33,865 nucleotides of DNA from Bdellovibrionales bacterium (lineage in GTDB: Bacteria > Bdellovibrionota > Bdellovibrionia > Bdellovibrionales > UBA840), in NCBI GenBank assembly GCA_037969075.1, contig JBBKWS010000024.1, forward strand, positions 1 to 33,865, given 5' to 3'. The notes beneath the pieces were generated by a model, which saw only the letters and a list, made by a program, of their open reading frames with translations, was not told the origin of the DNA and did not search any database. Positions 10,361-22,217 of this stretch are shown here, piece after piece. The number at the start of each line of letters is the position of its first letter. The stretch's first letter is position 1. The position numbers and the translations under genes were made by a program.

Positions 10361-11200
10361 CTATTTACCGCGTCTTAATTGGCTAGGGGCTTCTTCAGCC
10401 TGACCTGTTAATTTAAAATTATAATTCTTTGTAAACGTTCCGGTTTTGCCGGGGCGATAGCGCCATTTTTCATGGGCCTTTACGGCAGATGCATCTAAGC
10501 CTTCAAATCCTGATGACTGTGTCACTCTTGAGTTAGCGACACTTCCATCCTGTAAAACCTCAAACTGAACGACAGTTACACCTTCTTGCCGACGTAGTCT
10601 TGCCCACATTGGATAATCAGGGTTTTTGTTTCCAGGAACTGCGCTTAAAGCAGAATCAGATTGCACCCCAGAAGATGTGCCGTAAGCCGCTTCATTGTCT
10701 GCGCTTTGTCCATCAACAGGATTTTCTTCTTGAATTTGTTCTTGGATAGCTTCGTCCGCCAAAGGTTTTTCTTGCGAGCTTTCTTGCAAATCCTCATTTG
10801 TTGCGGGTGGCATGTCTTCTTCAGCAACTTCTTCTGTTATAGGTTCAACTATTTCGGGCTCATCTACTTGCGGTTCTTCGGCCGCGACTACTTCGGACTC
10901 GCTGTTTGCATCAGCAACGTTTGCTGGTGGCAAAGCCACAGGTTTTGGCGCGGGCTTCGGCGGTGGAGGCGGAGGGGGAGCGGCCTTTGTTTCTGCAACA
11001 TGATCAGCAACTTGCGAAGTGTCTTCAGTCTGTGAACCTTGTGGAATTGGTGCAGCAGTATAGCTAATCTCTGTTGATGTAACAGTTCCTTCTGGTAGGG
11101 CCATATCAAGACCAGTGTAGACTACGGCGACTGCCAGTAATGTATGTATTAAGATTGAAAGAAAGAAGGCTAGTGAAGATTTTGTATTTTCGTTACTCAT
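10361..11200 (-). CDS. tonB: Energy transducer TonB family protein
   Basis: N-terminal TM with SxxxH (SILIH), Pro/acidic linker, C-terminal PDYP..AR...EG.TVV.F.V..DG......SSG...LD..A.......W.Y.P. Confidence 0.92.
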   Translation of the reverse strand: MSNENTKSSLAFFLSILIHTLLAVAVVYTGLDMALPEGTVTSTEISYTAAPIPQGSQTEDTSQVADHVAETKAAPPPPPPPKPAPKPVALPPANVADANSESEVVAAEEPQVDEPEIVEPITEEVAEEDMPPATNEDLQESSQEKPLADEAIQEQIQEENPVDGQSADNEAAYGTSSGVQSDSALSAVPGNKNPDYPMWARLRRQEGVTVVQFEVLQDGSVANSRVTQSSGFEGLDASAVKAHEKWRYRPGKTGTFTKNYNFKLTGQAEEAPSQLRRGK

Positions 11201-11894
11201 TATTCTCTGCTACCGCTAGGATTGAAGATCTATCAATAGGATTATCAATGATTTGCGTCTGAAAATGAAAAGATTTTTGAAACTTTTTAGAAATCAGTGC
11301 TTCTTTACATGGACCTAGGTCGTGAATACTTTTGTCAGCAAGAAGTAAAAGTTTTGCGGTATCAAATTGCAGTGGCGTTTGAAAGTCATGGGTTGTAACA
11401 AAAATGTATTTGTATTTAGACTTTTGCAAATAATTTACCAGTTGCTTTTGGGCCCACCAATCTAAGTGGTTAAACGGTTCATCAAGAACTAAAGAATCCT
11501 TAGTCTGATTTAAAATGATAGTGATAAGTAGCCTTTGTAGCTCGCCGCTGGATAGCTCTCCGATGCGAGAAGTCGAAGACAGGTCAGCCAGCAACATTTT
11601 TTGGTAAATACTACTTTTTATAAACTCATCCCAACTCAACTCGTAAATTTCGACCACATCTCTTATTTGTAAGTGTGGGTTTATCTGGTAGCTAGTTGGC
11701 AAGTAGGCGGTATTTTCGATATCAGTGATGAGCCCATCAGTTTTTGTCCAACCGGCTAGTAAATGAAGAAGTGTTGTTTTGCCGCGTCCATTTTGCCCCA
11801 CAATAAAATAAAACCCTGGCTCAATAGTAAGGCTTACATTTTCAAAAACTGTATGGCTGCCGTAAGAGAAGCTACATGTTTCTAATTGAATCAT
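11193..11894 (-). CDS. ABC transporter ATP-binding protein (iron chelate/cobalamin type)
   Basis: Walker A GQNGRGKTT, signature LSSGELQR, Walker B LVLDEPFNHLD, H-loop THD. Confidence 0.9.
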   Translation of the reverse strand: MIQLETCSFSYGSHTVFENVSLTIEPGFYFIVGQNGRGKTTLLHLLAGWTKTDGLITDIENTAYLPTSYQINPHLQIRDVVEIYELSWDEFIKSSIYQKMLLADLSSTSRIGELSSGELQRLLITIILNQTKDSLVLDEPFNHLDWWAQKQLVNYLQKSKYKYIFVTTHDFQTPLQFDTAKLLLLADKSIHDLGPCKEALISKKFQKSFHFQTQIIDNPIDRSSILAVAENNE

Positions 11895-12840
11895 TCGGCC
11901 CCCTTACAAGTAAATAGAGTAAAAATGGTGTACCAAAAATGGCGATGATGCCACCAGCAGGAATGTCAGCCATAGGAAAAAGAACCCTAGCTATAATATC
12001 TGAAAGAAGTAATAAAATAGCGCCCATCATTGATGAAAGCGGCAAGATGTATTTATAGCGGACAGTTTTAAATAAATACAAACACAGGTGCGGCGCCATC
12101 AGGCCAACAAATGCAATCACCCCCGCAAGAGTAACGGTAATGGCAGTTAAAATTGAAACTAATAAAATCGCTATGATTCGAGTTTTATTTTTTTTACTAA
12201 AGCTTAAAGAAAGTTTTTCTCCAAGGTGATAATACTCAAGCTCTTTGGATTTGATAGAAAGATAAATATATGAGAAAAAAAATGTCCCCGCCATTAATGG
12301 CCACCACATGTCTCTGTCTTCACCAAACCTTCCCATCAGCCAACGGACTGCCAGTCCAATCTCACTTGGCGCAAGGGCGCTTACACTGATGTAACTTATA
12401 GAGTTACAAAAATAAGACAGTATTACGCCGGCCAAAATAAGACTTCGTTGGCTCCAGCCCCCCAATTTTTTTGCTAACATAAAGATAAAGACAGTAACAA
12501 GTATACAGCAGATGCCGGCTAATATGGGTAAGCTTAACCATAGGGGATAAATTGAAAATAAAATGGCGGCAGAAACACCAACTGATGCTCCGCCAGAAAT
12601 ACCTAGAGTATAAGGTTCGGCTAGAGGGTTTTGTAGTATGCTTTGTAAAAGAAATCCTGACATTCCAAGGGCCATTCCAACAAACGTTATAGATAAGGCC
12701 CTAGGAAGTCTAATTTGGTAAAAAATCACAGAGAAGTTTTTTGAATCCATTAGAGTTTGCAAATCCGTACTGCCCACTAACAGAGAAATGATTACTAAAA
12801 AAACTAAAGCAAAAAATGTGATTAGAAGATTACGTTTCAT
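11872..12840 (-). CDS. FecCD/BtuC family ABC permease
   Basis: IRLPR, QNPLAEPYTLGISGGA, GVIAFVGLMAPH, GTPFLLYLL. Likely start at ATG 12840, overlapping the upstream stop. Confidence 0.93.
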   Translation of the reverse strand: MKRNLLITFFALVFLVIISLLVGSTDLQTLMDSKNFSVIFYQIRLPRALSITFVGMALGMSGFLLQSILQNPLAEPYTLGISGGASVGVSAAILFSIYPLWLSLPILAGICCILVTVFIFMLAKKLGGWSQRSLILAGVILSYFCNSISYISVSALAPSEIGLAVRWLMGRFGEDRDMWWPLMAGTFFFSYIYLSIKSKELEYYHLGEKLSLSFSKKNKTRIIAILLVSILTAITVTLAGVIAFVGLMAPHLCLYLFKTVRYKYILPLSSMMGAILLLLSDIIARVLFPMADIPAGGIIAIFGTPFLLYLLVRGPNDSIRNM

Positions 12841-13861
12841 TTTCACTAAGTAATTTGGCAATATCTTTTCGAAGCTCAGGTATACGGGTCATAGTCATCG
12901 TAGTTCTTAAATAATCTCGCATTGGCTGTAAAGGAAATCCGCCGTAAGCGCCTGGCTTGGAGATATCTTTTGTTACACAACTTATACCGGCAACCTGAAC
13001 CATATCACAAATTTGAATATTGGGCTGTATATGTGTTCCGCCGCCACAAACAAAGTGATGCCCCGTTGTAACATTGTGTGAGATACGAAGACCTGCGGTC
13101 AAAAAACTATGTGGTCCAATGTTGGATTCACTGCCAATAAAAATTCGATTATCTAACTTAGTGCCGGTTTGAATAATGGTTTGGTTGCTAGCGCCTCTTT
13201 CGATTACGTTACCAGCGCCAATTTCGACACGATCTTCAAGGGTAACTCCGCCTTTTGCTGACAATAAGACGCCCTTGGTGTCATAACAATAAGGTTCTGC
13301 TCCTATGGTATTTTGCGATAGTATGCGCACCTGGGATTTGATAATCGTATTAGGACCAATATAGTTATTTGCATCTATATGCGAATTAGCTCCGACAATG
13401 CACGATTCAGCAATGTAAGTGTTAGGCCCGATGCTTGCATTTTTTTCTATATGTACATTGTTTTGTATCACAACATTGGGGCCAATTTTAGCGGATGGAT
13501 CAATAACAACATTGTCACCCATAACAACTGAGGGATGCACACCACTTGCTAAACTAGGGTTTGCCGGGGTATCGAAATAGGCTTGTAGAATTTGGGAAAC
13601 CAGAACATCAGATTTTTTTGCAAAGATATAAACTTTATGTGGATCAATAGTTACTTTTTCTTTTAATTTATCAGAGACAATAATAATATTAGCTTTGGCT
13701 GTAGTGGCTGCAGCAAGAGCCTTATCATTATGTATAAATATAAGAGAATCTTCGGCTGAATGGTTAAATGAAGAAACGGCAGAAAATGTTTTGTTTACAT
13801 CGCCTACTACAGAGGAAATTGCATCTGCAAACTTTAACTGTAACTCACTTATGGATATCAT
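12830..13861 (-). CDS. lpxD: LpxD-like protein B: full length with N-terminal uridine-binding domain, catalytic His absent
   Basis: N-terminal LpxD domain (SLIFIHNDK), hexapeptide repeats, KLDN, VTKDISKPGAYGGFP and C-terminal helix; QIAHN replaced by FIGSE. Confidence 0.8.
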   Translation of the reverse strand: MISISELQLKFADAISSVVGDVNKTFSAVSSFNHSAEDSLIFIHNDKALAAATTAKANIIIVSDKLKEKVTIDPHKVYIFAKKSDVLVSQILQAYFDTPANPSLASGVHPSVVMGDNVVIDPSAKIGPNVVIQNNVHIEKNASIGPNTYIAESCIVGANSHIDANNYIGPNTIIKSQVRILSQNTIGAEPYCYDTKGVLLSAKGGVTLEDRVEIGAGNVIERGASNQTIIQTGTKLDNRIFIGSESNIGPHSFLTAGLRISHNVTTGHHFVCGGGTHIQPNIQICDMVQVAGISCVTKDISKPGAYGGFPLQPMRDYLRTTMTMTRIPELRKDIAKLLSENET

Positions 13862-14580
13862 TTAGCTGATCCTTTTAGATGTAAAACTTTTTTTCTTAAA
13901 TCATATAGCTCTTTAATGCACTCTAGTCGCTCGTCAAGCGTGTCGATTGGCTGATGCGGAAAACCAAAATAGTGACCTGAATTATTCTCAGCATTATTCA
14001 CGGAGGAGCAAGCGTGTAAATGAACTGAATCAGCAACATTTATGTGCCCAGTGATTGCATTCAGCCCATCGGCTTTAAAATTATCTCCAACAGAGGTTGA
14101 GCCTGCAATCATAAAATCACAGTATATGCGAGCATTTTTACCAACAGAAGAGTTGTGCCCGATATGCGAAAAAGGTCCAATGTGTGAATTTTTACCGATC
14201 CTACTAGTGTCAAGTGCAGCGCGGTCGATAAAAGAAGAAGGCCCAAAGTGTACGCCATCATGTAAAACAGCATTGCCGATCTGCGGAATGTAGTGATGTG
14301 TTCCAATAGCATCTGTCGCGTAGCCAAAACCCAGCGAACCTATAGCTGATTGTGGATAAATGTGTACATTGTTGTGTATGCTGCAGCCATTATAAATCAT
14401 TACATGTGGATAAACGATAACGTCAGAACCTAGTTTAGCATCAGCCTCAATAGTTACAAAGGCCATGAGTTTTGTGTTTTCACCAATAACGACATTTTTG
14501 CCAACAAAAGAGTAGGGACCAACACTTACATTGGCTGCTAGTTTAGCTGAGGGATCAACGACCGCCGTTTTATGAATCAT
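13858..14580 (-). CDS. lpxD: LpxD-like protein A: lacks the N-terminal domain, retains the catalytic His
   Basis: Starts directly at IHKTAVVDPSA hexapeptides; GSLGFGY, IPQIG, IDRAA, IGHN, IAGS, TGHI, YFGFP. Confidence 0.8.
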   Translation of the reverse strand: MIHKTAVVDPSAKLAANVSVGPYSFVGKNVVIGENTKLMAFVTIEADAKLGSDVIVYPHVMIYNGCSIHNNVHIYPQSAIGSLGFGYATDAIGTHHYIPQIGNAVLHDGVHFGPSSFIDRAALDTSRIGKNSHIGPFSHIGHNSSVGKNARIYCDFMIAGSTSVGDNFKADGLNAITGHINVADSVHLHACSSVNNAENNSGHYFGFPHQPIDTLDERLECIKELYDLRKKVLHLKGSAK

Positions 14581-14702
14581 GGTATTATTTCTAGCATAGT
14601 TACGGATGTCGGTATAGTTACCTTTTTTGGTATTCTATGTAATTTTAGGGTCTTTGGTTAATGCCCGTTGCCATTACAATGCGTTATGATACTACCTTTT
14701 GG

Positions 14703-15563
14703 ATGAAGCATTACGCACTTCTTGTTTTAGGTACCAGCATCTGGGGCTTTGGCTTTATTGCCGCCAAATGGTCGCTAGAATTGTATGGGCCTTATTGGGC
14801 CAATACATTGCGTTTTTTGATAGCCTGTGCTTTTAGTATTCCTCTGTTTATTCAGCACAAAACATATAGACGAGATTATAAATACTTTATTCCACCGCTG
14901 ATTGCAGGAACCTTGATTTATTTTGGCATGCACTTTCAAACCCTTGGTTTAAATTTTACCAGCGTAGCGAAGTCGGGATTTCTGACAACATTTTATGTAA
15001 TCTTTATTCCACTTTTTGCGATATTGTTTCGAAAAAAAGTATATTCTTTTGCATTTTGGTTTTACGTGTTTATGGCCTTAATTGGCGTGGCTCTTCTTTG
15101 TGAGTTAAAATTTAGTGGTTTCAATATTGGAGATTTTTATACTCTTCTTTGTGCCCTATGTTTTGCGGGTCATATTTTGTATGTTGATACGATTACAAAA
15201 AATTATAATTCGTTTGAATTAAATGGAATGCAGTTTGTGACTGCACTCCTTTGGGGTGTGCCACTTAGTTTTATGATGGAGGGGGGCGTTGATATATCAT
15301 TGATGCTGCTACCAGAAAATTACTTGGCCCTATATGGAATATTGTTTTTAGGAATTTTTTCTTCTGTATTGGCGTTCTCTATTCAATTGATCGCACAAAA
15401 AAAGATAGCGCCACATGTGGCAGGATTCTTCTTTTTACTAGAGTCACCCTTTGCAGCCATCTTTGCCTACTTTGTATTAAGTGAACACCTTGGGCAAATG
15501 CAGATATCTGGATGTTTGCTTATCTTAGTTTCAGTGATAGCTGTACAGAGGCGAGCCTCATAA
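14703..15563 (+). CDS. DMT/EamA family transporter
   Basis: IWGFGF, FQTLGLNFTS..KSGFLT, GD..TL.CA..FA.HI, LESPFA; about 10 TM segments. Start at MKHY chosen; the track starts at 14661. Confidence 0.92.
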   Translation: MKHYALLVLGTSIWGFGFIAAKWSLELYGPYWANTLRFLIACAFSIPLFIQHKTYRRDYKYFIPPLIAGTLIYFGMHFQTLGLNFTSVAKSGFLTTFYVIFIPLFAILFRKKVYSFAFWFYVFMALIGVALLCELKFSGFNIGDFYTLLCALCFAGHILYVDTITKNYNSFELNGMQFVTALLWGVPLSFMMEGGVDISLMLLPENYLALYGILFLGIFSSVLAFSIQLIAQKKIAPHVAGFFFLLESPFAAIFAYFVLSEHLGQMQISGCLLILVSVIAVQRRAS

Positions 15564-15686
15564 GGCAGGATTTACTTTTCACTAAATGTAAATATTTTTT
15601 TGATAAGGTCTAGATCTTTATTTTTTATAACCATTTAATAATCTTCCTTGTCCTATTAATGGGGTCATTTAAATAGGGGAGGATGT

Positions 15687-17204
15687 TTGTTAAAAGTAAT
15701 CCAAATGATTTTATGGTTGGGAACGCTGGTTGTATTTACTGCCTGTGCAGATCAAATAGATTCTATAGGTCAAAATACAGATCAAACTGCGCAGTATATA
15801 GTGGTGTTTAAATCGTCTTCTGACAAAATGCAGATCAGTAGTGCGGACAAGGACATTCAAGTGCAAAGCCAACTTAAGGCCTTGTCAATTGAGTATAACG
15901 TGGTTGAGTCACTTAGCTTCTCTAGGGTGTTAGCGGGTGGAGTGTATCGACTTAATAAAAGTCAGTTAGAAAAAATTAAAAAAGATCCTATGGTTGCCTA
16001 CGTTGAACCAGATTATATTGCCACAATCAACGAGAGCCAGACGAACCCATCTTGGGGTCTGGATCGTATCGATCAAGCTGGTTCAAGTTTAGATAAAACT
16101 TATAGCTATCAAGTCGCAGGAAAAGATGTGAATGCCTATATTATTGATACAGGAATAGTTACGAATCATGTGGATTTTGGATCGCGTGCTGTGAGCGGTT
16201 ATGATGCTGTAGATAATGATAACGACGCGGCTGACTGTAATGGTCACGGAACTCATGTGGCAGGAACAGTTGGCGGAACTAAATACGGGGTGGCAAAAGA
16301 GGTAAATTTAATTGCTGTTCGAGTTCTTGGCTGTTCAGGATCTGGAAGTTATTCGGGAGTTATTAAAGGGATCGAGTGGGTTACTAAAAATCATAAAAAA
16401 CCCGCGGTAGCGAATATGAGTTTGGGCGGTCCTGTATCACAAGCTCTTGAAGATGCAATGAAGGCATCCATACAAGCAGGGGTGACTTATGTTGTGGCTG
16501 CAGGAAATGAAAAAACAGATGCGTGTAACTCTTCTCCTTCAAGATTAGCAGAGGCAATTACTGTTGGAAGTATTGAAAAAAATGACAAGCGGTCAAGTTT
16601 TTCAAACTGGGGAACTTGTTTAGATGTGTTTGCCCCCGGCACAGATATCTTGTCCGCTTGGTACACATCAAGTACAGCAACAAATACAATTAGCGGTACC
16701 TCGATGGCGGCGCCTCATGTGGCTGGCGTTGCAGCGCTAGTGCTGTCAGTCGAGCCAGATCGGTCACCGGCGGAAGTCGCAGATATAATAGTTAAAAATA
16801 GTCTTAGTGATAAGATTTCAGATGTAAAAACGGGCTCACCAAATAAACTTGTAAACACTGAGTTTATTAAACTACCGGTTGTTGACCCACCGGTTGATGA
16901 TGATTCTTTAAAAGTTGGCGATGTGATTGCAGATTTATCTGGGGTAAAAGGTGAGGAGCAATCGTATAAATTAGTGGTTCCTAAAGGGTTGGATCAAATA
17001 GAGGTCATTATATCTGAGGGTAGCGGAGACGCAGATCTTTACGTTAAAATCAACGATGTACCCAGTTTAACAAGTTATAGCTGTAGGCCTTACGCGTGGG
17101 GTAACTTTGAGCGCTGTACGTTTAAAAATCCCAAAGAAGGTACGTACCATATAATGCTACGAGCATATTCGAACTACGGCGGAGTAAAATTAAGCATTCA
17201 GTAA
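15687..17204 (+). CDS. S8 subtilisin (proteinase K/aqualysin-like) lipoprotein with I9 propeptide and C-terminal PPC domain
   Basis: Triad IIDTG, HGTHVAG, GTSMAAPHVAG; SWGLDRIDQ; GDADLYV PPC motif; lipobox FTAC; GGAGG SD before a TTG start. Confidence 0.95.
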   Translation: MLKVIQMILWLGTLVVFTACADQIDSIGQNTDQTAQYIVVFKSSSDKMQISSADKDIQVQSQLKALSIEYNVVESLSFSRVLAGGVYRLNKSQLEKIKKDPMVAYVEPDYIATINESQTNPSWGLDRIDQAGSSLDKTYSYQVAGKDVNAYIIDTGIVTNHVDFGSRAVSGYDAVDNDNDAADCNGHGTHVAGTVGGTKYGVAKEVNLIAVRVLGCSGSGSYSGVIKGIEWVTKNHKKPAVANMSLGGPVSQALEDAMKASIQAGVTYVVAAGNEKTDACNSSPSRLAEAITVGSIEKNDKRSSFSNWGTCLDVFAPGTDILSAWYTSSTATNTISGTSMAAPHVAGVAALVLSVEPDRSPAEVADIIVKNSLSDKISDVKTGSPNKLVNTEFIKLPVVDPPVDDDSLKVGDVIADLSGVKGEEQSYKLVVPKGLDQIEVIISEGSGDADLYVKINDVPSLTSYSCRPYAWGNFERCTFKNPKEGTYHIMLRAYSNYGGVKLSIQ

Positions 17205-17280
17205 TTAGTGGACATAGGTTATGACATGGGCTCAACTTAAACTGTAATTATCATGATATTACGGTACGAGAGGGTGGCCC

Positions 17281-17637
17281 ATGACAAACCTATTATATTA
17301 TATTGCCCCTATAATCGGGCTTACTACACTAGCCATCGGAGTTATGGCTGTACTTCGTCCAAAGCCTATGTCTAAAAAATTTGGCATTTCAGTTGATGGC
17401 GACGCCCTTCCCTATGTTATTGCCACCGGCATACGTGATGTTTTTATGGGGCTCACCATTTTTATTTTATTTTATCTGCAAGAGTGGGTAGCGCTTGGCG
17501 CGATTAATCTGTGTGTTGGGATTGTTGCTATCTCTGATTTTTTAGCTGTTCGAAAGCATGGGGATAAAAAAACATCAATGGTTCATCTTTTTGGAGCAAT
17601 TGCAGTGATTGTGTACGGAGCATGGCTACTTTTATGA
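17281..17637 (+). CDS. DUF4267-like small membrane protein
   Basis: Four hydrophobic segments with FG, GIRD..MG, D and H residues typical of DUF4267. Confidence 0.75.
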   Translation: MTNLLYYIAPIIGLTTLAIGVMAVLRPKPMSKKFGISVDGDALPYVIATGIRDVFMGLTIFILFYLQEWVALGAINLCVGIVAISDFLAVRKHGDKKTSMVHLFGAIAVIVYGAWLLL

Positions 17638-17654: not shown

Positions 17655-19424
17655 CTAAAAATAAAAACTATAATCCACAAAATATTTACGCAGTGGCTCC
17701 GGGTAAGCTACATCAAAAACTTTTTGCTCGGCAAAAATATTATCCACGCCTAAACCGATTTCAAAATTCTTAAATCCATAAGTGCTTACATGTAAATTGG
17801 TCGTTGTCCAATTGTCGGCTCGCCTTAAACCATTGGTAAAATCTTGCAAATAATATTTATACCAAGTTTGTACTTGCGGCTGAATTTTAATAAAACCGTA
17901 ATAATACGTTAGACCAATCGATGTCTGTAGTCTTGGGCTTAGTGGCAGGGGTTCACCGCTAGCATTTTTAGTTTTCATGTAATTTGCAGATAGATCGATA
18001 TCAAAATGCAAAGTCTTTATTTTAGATTCTGCCTCTATCCCTAAACTCGTAGCCTTGTCCTCATTTTGAGTTTTATATTTACCGCCAGTTAAAACGGTTT
18101 TAAAAATATCTTGGTAATCAATGCGGTAGGCTTTAATTTTATAAAAATCAGCAGTTTTTCCAATTTCAATTTGATGAGATGTTTCGGGGTTTAAATCAGA
18201 ATTTTTAGTAGAAAAAGAATCCTCTAAAAACAATGCATTCAATGTAGGGCTTCTATAGCCTTCAGTGTAAGCTGCGTAGCATGTGTTTTTGCTAAGAGTA
18301 AGGCCCTTAAGCCAAGCCTGGTATTTTTCTAGATAGCGAACTTGCGGTTCGATTATTAGCCCAAACTGTTGGTGCGCTTGTTGTATACCAATATCTAATT
18401 CGTTCTGATCAAACCTAGTAATAGCAGAGTATTCATTTCTTAAATGACTGTTGTTATACTGCAACTGCAGTAAATTGATAAAGTTGTCATTGATTAGACT
18501 TTCTAAGTGTAAAACAGCATTGGTGTTTTGATTTTGAATATTCGAGTAACTACCTGACTGCAAATTCTCATTTTCGGTTTTTAGATAGGAGACTTGTCCT
18601 TTAATTACGTTATTGGCATTTACATTTATTTCATTGTAATGAGTTACAAATAAAGCTTGTTGATTGTAATTGTTTTCAGAAAAACCAAGGACTGCTGGGG
18701 TCATTCCATTTTTTTTACCAAATAAGATCGAGGTAAAAGATTCTTTATAAAAGTAGGTCGCAGATGCTCGTCTCCAATCGGATTGATTTGGCTTCCACCT
18801 ACCATCACTAAACCCTAATCCCGAGTCGTGATCATAAGAATTATTAAAGGTTTCACTAAAGTATGTAAGCTGCAATTGTGAGTCTTTGGTTTTTAAAGGA
18901 CTGTATTTTACTGATCCAGAGTATTGATCAAAACTACCGGCAAATAATTTTATTTTATTTCTATCATCTCTGCTTGGTAAAAACCTAAATGCCCCGCCCG
19001 TTGCCTTTGACCCAAAATATAAAGAGGCTGGACCTTTATAAACATACATAGAATCAAAAATCTCTTCACCCAAAAGTACAAAGGCGGGGCCGCTACCGTC
19101 CCCAGCTTGCAGCGGTGCTAAGCCAAAAAGTGTGAGAGTGCGATCTGCCGCAAGAGAGCCGCGAATGGATAAAGATGGCGATCCGTTTGATCTGGCTTGC
19201 AGGCCACCTTGTTTTTGTAGTGAGTCTATAAATGAAAAATTAGTATTAGTGTCTAGCTCTATATGGTCTGCGCTGCGAGTAGTGAATAGATCAATAGGGT
19301 TTCCAAGAATTAAAGTTTCTTGCTTTATCTCTGCCGCATGGGCAGCAGAGATAAGAATGCTAAGTACTAAGACCTTCAGGAATACGCATTTCGCGCACAC
19401 TCTCGGCAATAGATTTGTGTTCAT
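17655..19424 (-). CDS. TonB-dependent outer-membrane receptor (BtuB-like size)
   Basis: Plug motifs SLSIRG and YKGPASLYFGS.A.GG; EGYRSPTL..L, N.DLNPE, GVDNIF; C-terminal YSFYF. Start uncertain (19478, 19424 or later); overlaps the nagZ 3' end. Confidence 0.88.
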   Translation of the reverse strand: MNTNLLPRVCAKCVFLKVLVLSILISAAHAAEIKQETLILGNPIDLFTTRSADHIELDTNTNFSFIDSLQKQGGLQARSNGSPSLSIRGSLAADRTLTLFGLAPLQAGDGSGPAFVLLGEEIFDSMYVYKGPASLYFGSKATGGAFRFLPSRDDRNKIKLFAGSFDQYSGSVKYSPLKTKDSQLQLTYFSETFNNSYDHDSGLGFSDGRWKPNQSDWRRASATYFYKESFTSILFGKKNGMTPAVLGFSENNYNQQALFVTHYNEINVNANNVIKGQVSYLKTENENLQSGSYSNIQNQNTNAVLHLESLINDNFINLLQLQYNNSHLRNEYSAITRFDQNELDIGIQQAHQQFGLIIEPQVRYLEKYQAWLKGLTLSKNTCYAAYTEGYRSPTLNALFLEDSFSTKNSDLNPETSHQIEIGKTADFYKIKAYRIDYQDIFKTVLTGGKYKTQNEDKATSLGIEAESKIKTLHFDIDLSANYMKTKNASGEPLPLSPRLQTSIGLTYYYGFIKIQPQVQTWYKYYLQDFTNGLRRADNWTTTNLHVSTYGFKNFEIGLGVDNIFAEQKVFDVAYPEPLRKYFVDYSFYF

Positions 19425-20466
19425 CACAGCCCACAATCTTATTAACTTCATCTTTTGGTAATGGTCCAACATGCTCAATTCTTTCAGCTTTTAATTGAAT
19501 CATTTTATCGTAGTTTTTCTGAATAACTTCAAGGGGTATTTCTTTGTTTTCCACGGCCTTTATTACTGCCTCTAATCCAATCTTATGTGATTCGGGTTCA
19601 TTGCAATATAATAGTACATGCGCACCAGCCTTTAGAGACTGCACAGGAATTATTTTTCTGTCGTAGTGATTTGTAAGAGCCTTCATATCTAAATCGTCAG
19701 TGATTACTATTTTTCTAAAACCTGTTTCTTTGATTAAGTCTTGTAAAAATTTCTCAGATAAAGTCACAGGCCACTCTGGATCAATATTGTTAAATTTAAT
19801 ATGTGCTGTCATTACCATATCTACACGGGCGCGAAATGTTTTTTTGAAAGCCTGGATTTCGCGAGCTGATAACTCTTCCCAAGTTAAACTCTCTTCTGGC
19901 AAGGCCTCATGGCTATCGATAATAGTGTTGCCGTGACCAGGAAAGTGTTTAGCACAAGTGATAATGCCAGCATTGATGTAACCTCTAACAAGTGCAGATC
20001 CATGTTTTCCTACGATGTCTGGATCTTCACCAAGAGAACGGTCACCGATAAGTACGTTCTGTAAATTCGTTAATACGTCTACACAAGGAGCAAAGTCTAA
20101 ATTTATTCCCACGGCATTTAGTTCTCGTCCCATGCACTCGGCGTATTTAAAAGTAAGAGCCGCAGAATCAAGGTCTCCCAGCTTGCGAACGGGAGGCCAA
20201 ATAGTAAATGGTTCTTTTAACCTTGCTACGCGGCCACCTTCCATATCGATTGCGATAATTAGAGGAGCATTATTAGCAGATTTTAATCTTGTGTCTTGAA
20301 TTTCTTGTATTAACGAACAAATTTGTTCTAAGGATTCAATGTTTCTACCAAATAGAGTTACTCCGCCAATATTATTTTCTGTTAAGAATTTTTTTTCTTC
20401 AGTGCTTAGGGTTTTTCCTTGCACACCGATCATCATGATATTGCCAACTAATTCATTTATCTTCAT
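19360..20466 (-). CDS. nagZ: Beta-N-acetylhexosaminidase (GH3), cytoplasmic
   Basis: GGVTLFGRN, DMEGGRVARL, KHFPGHG...DSH, MTAH, ITDDLDM; no signal peptide. Confidence 0.96.
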   Translation of the reverse strand: MKINELVGNIMMIGVQGKTLSTEEKKFLTENNIGGVTLFGRNIESLEQICSLIQEIQDTRLKSANNAPLIIAIDMEGGRVARLKEPFTIWPPVRKLGDLDSAALTFKYAECMGRELNAVGINLDFAPCVDVLTNLQNVLIGDRSLGEDPDIVGKHGSALVRGYINAGIITCAKHFPGHGNTIIDSHEALPEESLTWEELSAREIQAFKKTFRARVDMVMTAHIKFNNIDPEWPVTLSEKFLQDLIKETGFRKIVITDDLDMKALTNHYDRKIIPVQSLKAGAHVLLYCNEPESHKIGLEAVIKAVENKEIPLEVIQKNYDKMIQLKAERIEHVGPLPKDEVNKIVGCDEHKSIAESVREMRIPEGLST

Positions 20467-20478
20467 ATCTCATCCGCA

Positions 20479-21300
20479 TTAAGAAGTTTTCTTAGGATCT
20501 AGTATATCTCGTAAACCATCCCCAAGTAAATTAAAACCAAGAACTAAAAGTACAATGAACAGACCAGGAAATATACTTATGTGAGGTGCATCTAAGAGGG
20601 CCTGTCTGCCAGAGTTTAGTAAAGCCCCCCAACTAGGCACATCTGGAGGTACCCCTAAGCCTAAAAAACTTAAACCAGATTCAGAAATAATAGTGCCGGC
20701 CATGCCAAAACTTATTTGTACAATTAGTGGGCCCAATAGGTTGGGCCAAATATGCCATACAAGTATGCGAGGAACTTTGGCGCCAATGGCCCGTGCTGAT
20801 TGCACATACTCTCTAGTTTTCAAATGTAAAACTTCGCCTCGTACAAGCCTTGCGTACCCTGTCCAGCCAGTAATACATAGAGCAAATATTAAATTTCTTA
20901 ATGATGGTCCAAGTACAGCAACAACAGCGATCGCTAATAAAAAACCAGGAAAAGCATAAAGCATATCAATGATACGCATCAATAGTTGGTCAATTTTTCC
21001 GCCGTAATAACCCGCGATAGACCCAAAAATTAAACCTAAAAACATAGAGATGCCCACAACAAAAATGGCAACTAATAAACTAACTCTGGCACCAAAGACC
21101 ACCTTACTAAACACATCACTTCCATTTTGATCCAGGCCAAAAATATGATTGGCAGAGGGCGATAGAAAACGCTGTGATAAATTCATAGAATTTGGGTCTT
21201 GCGAGCTAAACAGTGGAGCAAAGATTGCCATGATTAACATGGTTAAAATAATAAAGCTGCCCACATAAATAAAATAATATTTTTTATTTAATAATTTCAT
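20479..21300 (-). CDS. Peptide/nickel ABC transporter permease (DppC/OppC-like)
   Basis: HIFGLDQNGSD, GARVSL, EAA loop EYVQSARAIGA, ESGLSFLGLG, FNLLGDGLRDILDP. Confidence 0.95.
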   Translation of the reverse strand: MKLLNKKYYFIYVGSFIILTMLIMAIFAPLFSSQDPNSMNLSQRFLSPSANHIFGLDQNGSDVFSKVVFGARVSLLVAIFVVGISMFLGLIFGSIAGYYGGKIDQLLMRIIDMLYAFPGFLLAIAVVAVLGPSLRNLIFALCITGWTGYARLVRGEVLHLKTREYVQSARAIGAKVPRILVWHIWPNLLGPLIVQISFGMAGTIISESGLSFLGLGVPPDVPSWGALLNSGRQALLDAPHISIFPGLFIVLLVLGFNLLGDGLRDILDPKKTS

Positions 21301-22217
21301 TCGTACCTAACTTTAGGGTTCGCCCACGCGTAGGCTAGATCAACCAATAAATTTACTAGTACATAAGTCACTGATATAAATATAATGCAGGCCTGTACCT
21401 GTGGATAATTGCGCTGTTGTATACCGCTGAATAATAGGGTTCCAACGCCCGGCCAATCAAAAATAGTTTCAGTAATTACGGTTCCTGTAAGGAGTGCCCC
21501 AAATTGTAATCCAATAATAGTTATGATTGGCATCATTGCATTTCTAAGGGCGTGTTTAAAATAAATAGTTCTCTCGCTTAATCCCTTGGATCTAGCTGTA
21601 CGAATGTAATCTTCTTTGATAACTTCAAGCATTGAGGCCCGGGTCATCCGCAATAAAATTGATCCCAGGGCAAGTGCTAAGCTGATCGCGGGCAGAATTA
21701 AATGTTCAATGCCGCCCCTCTCACTTACGGGTAGTAGGTCTAACTGTATCGAAAAGACCAAAATTAACATTGGTCCAAGCCAAAATCCAGGGACCGACAT
21801 ACCCAAAAGTCCCACCGACATAATGATCTGATCAAACAGCGAGTGTTGTTTGACAGCTGCAATGGTACCTAAAGGAAGGGCAAAGAAAATGGCGATTAAC
21901 ATAGCGGCTATCGTTAGTTCGGCAGTTGCCGGAAAACGCTTTGCAATTTCTTCTACCACAGGCCTGCCGCTTTGTAGCGATCTACCAAGATCAAGACGAA
22001 CAAGACCTTTTAAGAAATGACCATATTGGACAGCGATTGACTGATCTAAACCTAGTTCTTTGCGAAGAGAGATTTTTTCTTCTAAAGACGCTTGCTCACC
22101 AAGCATAATGTCTACGGGGTCACCTGGAATTAGGTGAATTAAAAAAAATGATATTGTGCAAACACCAAATATTAGTGGAATCGTTAATAATAGACGCTTG
22201 ACGATATATTGTAACAT
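21297..22217 (-). CDS. Peptide/nickel ABC transporter permease (DppB/OppB-like)
   Basis: PGDP, LGLD, DLGRS, PGFWLG, DYIRTARSKGL, HALRNA, ETIFDWPGVG, NPKVR. Confidence 0.95.
   Translation of the reverse strand: MLQYIVKRLLLTIPLIFGVCTISFFLIHLIPGDPVDIMLGEQASLEEKISLRKELGLDQSIAVQYGHFLKGLVRLDLGRSLQSGRPVVEEIAKRFPATAELTIAAMLIAIFFALPLGTIAAVKQHSLFDQIIMSVGLLGMSVPGFWLGPMLILVFSIQLDLLPVSERGGIEHLILPAISLALALGSILLRMTRASMLEVIKEDYIRTARSKGLSERTIYFKHALRNAMMPIITIIGLQFGALLTGTVITETIFDWPGVGTLLFSGIQQRNYPQVQACIIFISVTYVLVNLLVDLAYAWANPKVRYE

Follow-up and report, generated by a model that had tools for sequence, protein, structure and literature searches.

Two adjacent lpxD paralogues with complementary active-site walls are predicted to form a heteromeric LpxD in a family of Bdellovibrionales

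Two overlapping genes in the genome of a Bdellovibrionales bacterium (GCA_037969075.1) encode proteins related to LpxD, the UDP-3-O-acyl-glucosamine N-acyltransferase. We analyzed them within positions 1 to 33,865 of contig JBBKWS010000024.1, a stretch of 33,865 nucleotides that we call the window; all window coordinates below are on the reverse strand where a feature of the two genes is given. Gene A (LpxD-A, 13858..14580) encodes a protein of 240 amino acids (aa) with a beta-helix and a C-terminal helix and without a uridine-binding domain. Gene B (LpxD-B, 12830..13861) encodes 343 aa with all three LpxD domains, from which the catalytic residues are gone. The stop codon of A and the start codon of B overlap as ATGA (13858..13861), from which we infer translational coupling. 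An earlier sequence-only reading had presented the genes as tandem, ATGA-coupled LpxD paralogues and had listed the residues that each keeps or has lost; its coordinates and overlap are correct, and alignment to Escherichia coli LpxD (3eh0) bears out its residues.

The two proteins are 25% identical to each other, and the best sequence match of both among solved structures is LpxD. As references for known LpxD we used the models TIGR01853 and PRK00892 and the structures PDB 3EH0, 2IU8, 4IHF and 6UEC. Both proteins miss the TIGR01853 cut-off of 242.5 (whole-protein scores 199.7 for A and 212.4 for B), while under the looser subfamily model PRK00892 (cut-off 207) B passes with 225.5 and A fails with 199.2. 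Judged from these sequences, each chain alone falls short of LpxD membership, and the pair would work like LpxD. We considered whether the two are one frameshifted or truncated gene and rejected this, as both open reading frames (ORFs) are open and conserved in seven genomes. No uridine-binding domain is hidden upstream of A, where the open frame spans 258 aa and lies just 80 bases from a gene in the opposite orientation, and a separate uridine-binding gene for A was likewise rejected.

Residue counts refer to a main alignment of 14 A-type, 12 B-type and 101 intact LpxD sequences, with 49 columns conserved in intact LpxD. Residue roles are those of E. coli LpxD. Chain A keeps an inserted loop, GFGY...IPQ (residues 84-101, 14278..14331; GFGY at 84-87 and IPQ at 98-100), that is degenerate in B, and its D119, H142, G160 and H179 align with E. 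coli D216, H239, G257 and H276. H142 (14155..14157), present in 14/14 A-type proteins, corresponds to E. coli H239 and to Pseudomonas aeruginosa H242, which a passage of PMC6820557 gives as the catalytic His. The remaining His wall, from A159-G160-S161 to G178-H179 (14044..14106; E. coli 256-258 and 275-276), is invariant in A-type proteins. In place of the otherwise invariant D232-N233, chain A has G135-P136 (14173..14178), with Gly at position 232 in 13 of the 14 A-type proteins.

Chain B shows the reciprocal set. Its residues 1-100 (13562..13861) make up a uridine-binding domain with F42 and N45, which PF04613 matches weakly at 27-90 (E 4e-4, below its cut-off). At the second uracil-stacking position (Y47 in E. 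coli), B has Ala, and Phe or Tyr occurs in 6/12 B-type proteins. B also carries K235-L-D237-N238 (13148..13159; E. coli 230-233), of which K, D and N are found in 12/12 B-type proteins. The catalytic positions hold E221, S244, H262 and N281; S244 (13130..13132) stands at the catalytic-His position, where no B-type protein in the main alignment has His (0/12). The loop is shortened, with PYCY where GFGY is expected. G273-G274 (13040..13045; P. aeruginosa A271-G272), invariant in B-type proteins, corresponds to the acyl-pocket wall contributed by a neighboring subunit. The C-terminal GFPLQPMRDYLR helix region (12833..12940) is net basic as in intact LpxD, and passages of PMC6820557 describe this helix region as docking the acidic acyl carrier protein (ACP).

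Out of 275 distinct LpxD-like proteins, a count that includes two near-duplicates, 243 carried His239, Asp232 and the N-terminal domain, 15 kept the His only (no Asp, no uridine-binding domain) and 13 kept the Asp and the uridine-binding domain without the His. The other four comprised three with His and Asp but a gap at the domain marker and one with Asn for Asp, and none lacked both His and Asp. Widening the search brought in 140 more proteins: 128 were classed as having His, Asp and domain, eight were B-type (two of them already-counted family members) and four were without the domain marker. P0244, counted among these 128, is without the remainder of the His wall, and it groups with B. Second lpxD-like copies of about 300 aa in five genomes (L245, L246, L247, L248 and L216) keep H239 and D232, lack H276 and have Pro at 269; by their sequences, these are a divergent acyltransferase subfamily alongside intact LpxD.

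The 49 conserved columns divided between the chains, and 45 were at least partly kept. Thirteen were retained in A only (G182, G184, P196, D216, G226, H236, A238, H239, N240, A256, G257, S258 and H276), nine in B only (V201, G228, K230, D232, N233, G268, G269, V283 and V291), five in both and four in neither, the rest being mixed. The catalytic His, G257, H276, D216 and the GFGY loop are all on chain A and none is conserved on B, whereas D232-N233 and the G269 wall are all on chain B, D232-N233 having been lost from A. The uridine-binding domain is likewise absent from A-type proteins (0/14) and present in all B-type proteins (12/12), which lack the catalytic His. Because the residue pattern is repeated in 7/7 genomes of the family, it is not chance or decay, and because orthologs of A or B are mostly only 26-44% identical between genera, the partition is old.

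This distribution bears on whether A could be self-sufficient, as a trimmed homotrimer without the uridine-binding domain or D232, leaving B as a dead partner with a separate role such as regulator, substrate carrier or scaffold. Every catalytic residue is kept in A, A-type proteins have invariant features of their own (N195 and A122), and mutagenesis of E. coli LpxD reportedly indicates that D232 and the uridine-binding domain act on binding, not on catalysis. However, D232 is present in 101/101 intact sequences and lost from 14/14 A-type proteins, B holds exactly what A lost, and the C-terminal helix is acidic in A (mean net charge -1.9) compared with +1.7 and +2.1 in the intact sets and +2.0 in B. 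We consider a self-sufficient A very improbable.

The family was sampled by seven genomes from five genera, with the source genome at 2.50 Mb in 211 contigs (90% complete, 5.7% contamination). The sequence-only reading had proposed looking for a third, intact lpxD and for co-occurrence of the pair in relatives. No third copy was found in the source genome, where the next match is LpxA, or in its six relatives: all seven genomes have exactly two LpxD matches at E<=1e-30, and in 0/7 does a copy exceed the LpxD cut-off, while lpxA and lpxC exceed theirs in 7/7. The source-genome run bamA-skp-fabZ-lpxA-lpxI-lpxB-lpxK, named from our ORF reading, contains no lpxD. A lies directly before B in all seven genomes, with the stop/start overlap in six; in G001 the pair spans two contigs with an exact 150-base overlap. 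Close homologs of B, where named, are from Bdellovibrionales metagenome-assembled genomes. With lpxA and lpxC intact, the host makes lipid A and needs the LpxD step, and A and B are the sole LpxD candidates in the seven genomes. LpxA showed no sign of serving as a degenerate third subunit: in 7/7 genomes it scores above its cut-off and the His-Asp pair is retained.

Both genes are under purifying selection, so that the neutral drift that would have undermined the sequence-only reading is not seen. For two pairs of close genomes, the nonsynonymous and synonymous divergences (dN/dS) of A were 0.21/2.1 and 0.09/2.3, and those of B were dN 0.14 and 0.11 with dS saturated. These results also bear on the alternative that the assemblies lack an intact lpxD that the organisms possess, with A and B decaying or serving in unrelated acyltransferase roles. 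The seven genomes are drafts and the source genome is 90% complete, which leaves room for a missed gene, but the chance of missing an intact lpxD in all seven is about 1e-9 (the product of the incompleteness values, if losses are independent), lpxA and lpxC were recovered in all seven, and selection has maintained both genes. We find this alternative hardly credible.

In a quick tree, A forms one clade and B another (Shimodaira-Hasegawa-like approximate likelihood ratio test support of 100 and 99), and a tree joining A and B scored 8.3 log units higher, with a p value of 0.70 in the approximately unbiased test (p-AU). Pairwise identity of the A genes rises and falls with that of the B genes (Spearman 0.67; the 21 pairs are not independent).

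Some further occurrences lie outside the seven genomes. Three pairs of A-type and B-type proteins (P0008/P0125, P0011/P0245 and P0015/P0246) have equally long longest contigs (63209, 41182 and 34227), which suggests three more adjacent A/B pairs. A metagenome locus scan returned 80 loci with matches 29-38% identical to A. In G312, a genome of another family, a B-type gene (L186:1498-2529, reverse strand) groups with the B clade; no A partner was found in that genome. With a contig end just 22 bases away, this gene speaks neither for nor against co-occurrence. It may be a mis-binned contig or a transfer. Neither lpxD (at E<=1e-30 to 1e-35) nor lpxC was matched in any of five genomes of the same order (G023, G032, G040, G283 and G286; 90-99% complete, four in 1-2 contigs), which from their sequences could possibly represent Bdellovibrionales lineages without lipid A synthesis.

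Passages of PMC6820557 describe LpxD as a homotrimer with three equal sites at the subunit junctions and show G272 and G278 of one P. aeruginosa site being supplied by adjacent monomers. In the paralogues described here, these two positions have parted: G272, equivalent to B G274, is found in 12/12 B-type and 7/14 A-type proteins, and G278, equivalent to A G178, in 14/14 A-type and 0/12 B-type proteins. In the 18-residue register of the beta-helix, the A-only positions cluster: 12 of 13 sit at a single corner, on the strand that flanks it or in its loops. The six B-only surface positions sit at the corner and strand just before. For this division Fisher p was 3e-4, or 1.5e-3 including inward residues, in a register that we assigned ourselves and in which neighboring residues are not independent. 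The conserved columns, the PMC6820557 passage and the structural model described next agree in placing the retained residues on opposite walls, as the sequence-only reading had claimed in arguing that each paralogue kept one face of the cleft.

We modelled a single assembly, B2A1 (that is, AB2). It scored 0.89, compared with 0.00 for the best of three controls, and passed a mark that is reached by 116/157 solved complexes and 2/215 mismatched pairs. The runs shared 94% of contacts, and the predicted local distance difference test (pLDDT) for the partner was at least 89. AlphaFold2 monomers made from shallow clade alignments were set aside (mean pLDDT 70 and 66, 13-15 Å root-mean-square deviation to LpxD). 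In the B2A1 model, the first B copy contacts A through its uridine-binding domain (29-34 and 82-103) and through G233, K235, D237, N238, T255-G257, G274 and G292, and the best-resolved pairs of this copy are with A 25, 43, 61 and 117, a stack of the His wall that continues to H139. The second B copy sets its dead wall (F241, R259, H277 and C295) against A 22, 58, 76, 114 and 136. As modelled, the uridine-binding domain and D237 of one chain would face the His wall of the next, which agrees with the arrangement that the sequence-only reading had assumed for LpxD.

The geometry also bears on whether the heteromer might be a dimer of A and B, leaving two dead faces exposed beside its one site, rather than a closed trimer. 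One interface would suffice for a site, and the non-catalytic wall of A is highly variable among A-type proteins. On the other hand, the hydrophobic pattern of the C-terminal helix bundle is present in both chains, and the bulky dead-wall residues (F241 and C295 of B, Y153 of A) meet across the second interface in the model. We regard a dimer as quite unlikely.

We propose that A and B together form an LpxD that is obligately heteromeric and has a single working site in each trimer, a reading to which we give a probability of roughly 85%. A and B would stem from a gene duplicated in the ancestor of this Bdellovibrionales family. A would have retained the wall with the catalytic His, oxyanion Gly, second His and GFGY loop, and B the opposite wall (K230/D232/N233 and G268/G269), the uridine-binding domain and the basic C-terminal helix. 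Neither homotrimer would be expected to work, and a complete site would arise only where the His wall of A meets the wall of B. The chains would probably assemble through the beta-helix and C-terminal bundle, and by geometry a three-subunit ring, whether AB2 or A2B, would have one live cleft and two dead ones, with the bulky dead-wall residues perhaps filling the second cleft. Our guess for the stoichiometry is AB2, because two basic helices resemble the ancestor.

In E. coli LpxD, the catalytic His deprotonates the amine and the oxyanion Gly stabilizes the intermediate. By this chemistry, the live cleft would acylate a UDP-3-acyl-amino sugar with acyl-ACP, H142 of A acting on the amine and G160 on the intermediate. 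Acyl-ACP would dock mostly on the basic helix of B, the acyl chain would lie between the H139/G178 side of A and the D237/G274 side of B, and the uridine would be held by the domain of B. The likely cause of the split is that the duplicated chains went on assembling together and each shed a wall still provided by its partner, with no new function needed. A different view is that the split is adaptive and recurrent: separately tuned walls would let the mixed enzyme prefer a particular acyl chain, sugar or ACP, or be controlled by the ratio of A to B, in ways beyond the reach of a homotrimer, and plugged dead clefts with a non-catalytic B would form a regulatory layer on lipid A synthesis that evolved at least twice in Bdellovibrionales. 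We think this doubtful. The earlier suggestion of a changed selectivity for acyl chain or sugar, or of a link with the atypical lipid A of Bdellovibrio, found no support here; an LpxD over the cut-off is present in 306/384 genomes of the order.

A comparable split appears in a second family. Outside the family of A and B, 24 genomes of the order have two or more LpxD matches, and 23 were aligned, leaving G161, whose two fragments lie at contig ends. In 22 of these 23, the copies keep H239 and D232 wherever covered. The remaining genome, G284 (96% complete, about 10 contigs), has intact lpxA and lpxC, no intact lpxD, and two unlinked lpxD copies that are both sub-threshold. The His-type copy (L154:1483-2529, reverse strand) keeps the His wall and has Q-G-A for K230/D232/N233 and G-E for G268-G269. 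The Asp-type copy (L159:1477-2604, reverse strand) keeps K-D-N and G-G; in it Gln replaces H239, GGF replaces AGS, and GFGY is absent. The copies are sisters in trees built without active-site columns (support 98 and 92) and nest in a clade with three intact proteins, P0381-P0383, that are 53-56% identical to both (support 97). Trees that gave the pair a common origin with A and B were rejected (p-AU 0.039 and 1e-5). On this sequence comparison, G284 is an independent lpxD duplication with the same reciprocal loss, and a younger one, because the His-type copy has not lost its N-terminal domain, nor the Asp-type copy H276. The recurrence counts against a self-sufficient A, and the lack of an intact copy in this genome too counts against an lpxD lost from the assemblies. 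Relative to the sequence-only reading, this analysis adds that a mixed trimer would have one working site only and that the split appears to have arisen twice, the second origin being represented by one genome.

Several observations weigh against a heteromeric LpxD or limit how firmly it can be held. Eighteen of the 49 conserved columns are mixed. Position 293, an ACP-contact residue of LpxD, falls within the register of the His wall, but it is Lys or Arg in 10/12 B-type proteins and Asn in 13/14 A-type proteins. The incomplete split in G284, described above, is a further point, and the seven family genomes are all drafts, of 85-98% completeness. The trees do not reject A and B as sisters and allow a single duplication without demonstrating it. 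The pass of the B2A1 model is weak evidence of binding because LpxD trimers have been solved and most alignment rows are intact LpxD (63/77 and 65/77 rows of the model alignments), so that it may reflect memory of those trimers. Which chain supplies D232 and the uridine-binding domain is taken from the model, one passage of PMC6820557 and general background on LpxD. The binding, activity and stoichiometry of the putative A/B heteromer are predictions from sequence and model.

Compared with known LpxD, the three-part build is shared and A and B jointly hold the conserved active-site residues. The known enzyme has three equal sites, as in the homotrimer of the PMC6820557 passages, whereas here neither chain holds a complete site and a ring would contain just one. 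Intact duplicate lpxD genes occur in Francisella. Leptospira likewise has two lpxD paralogues per genome, lpxD1 and lpxD2, as PMC8558515 reports. Such duplicates, including those of the two-copy Bdellovibrionales, can be separate homotrimers, which would not hold for A and B.

The nearest organizational precedent is the gamma-carbonic-anhydrase (gamma-CA) heterotrimer of plant mitochondrial complex I (gammaCA1/gammaCA2/gammaCAL2), which has the left-handed beta-helix fold in common with LpxD. A passage of PMC8290278 describes its paralogues as derived from an ancestral homotrimer with inter-subunit sites, one of three interfaces having the full ligand set. It differs in being a zinc hydratase, eukaryotic and a structural module of complex I, and both CA subunits retain active-site residues, so there is no strict two-way split, and activity is unproven there. 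B scored 25.2 against a cut-off of 250 on the gamma-CA model NF050158 and A had no listed match; the analogy is one of organization only. A more distant precedent, described in PMC12867745, is heterobacterioferritin Bfr1/Bfr2, in which two functions of one ancestral chain are split between co-dependent paralogues with fewer working sites; its fold is different, and two cofactor sites are split rather than two walls of one cleft. Duplicates in E. coli mostly stay homomeric, according to a passage of PMC7480870.

No heteromeric LpxD was found in the literature searched, a scope with most subscription papers outside it, and if the proposal is true, this would be the first known within that literature. 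The active-site cleft of an essential homo-oligomeric enzyme would have become the line along which one gene gave way to two co-dependent ones, in one ancient and one recent event. The pairs could offer a natural test in bacteria of how a homomer becomes an obligate heteromer by complementary loss, with the intact relatives of the recent pair (P0381-P0383) known. A one-site LpxD could also help to assign the binding of uridine, acyl chain and ACP to one wall or the other and to learn whether the three sites of the normal enzyme are coupled. For annotation, genomes with two sub-threshold lpxD matches should not be counted as lacking the step.

The pair lies within a block conserved in the family (window 10361-12861 and 17655-22217) that contains oppB/oppC, nagZ, a receptor-like or binding-protein gene, A, B, a btuC-like gene, an ABC ATPase and tonB, and a functional link of this block to lipid A is not evident. 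The btuC-like gene follows B in 6/6 relatives. A scan for promoters and terminators gave no more than chance would (9 found against 13.9 expected). The interval of the window that separates the receptor-like gene from A (14661-17637) holds an EamA-type transporter, a subtilase and a 118-aa ORF, and the transporter was seen next to A in 1/6 relatives, G001. Elsewhere in the window, the reverse strand at 965-1828 encodes a 287-aa protein with a CFI-box-CTERM domain.

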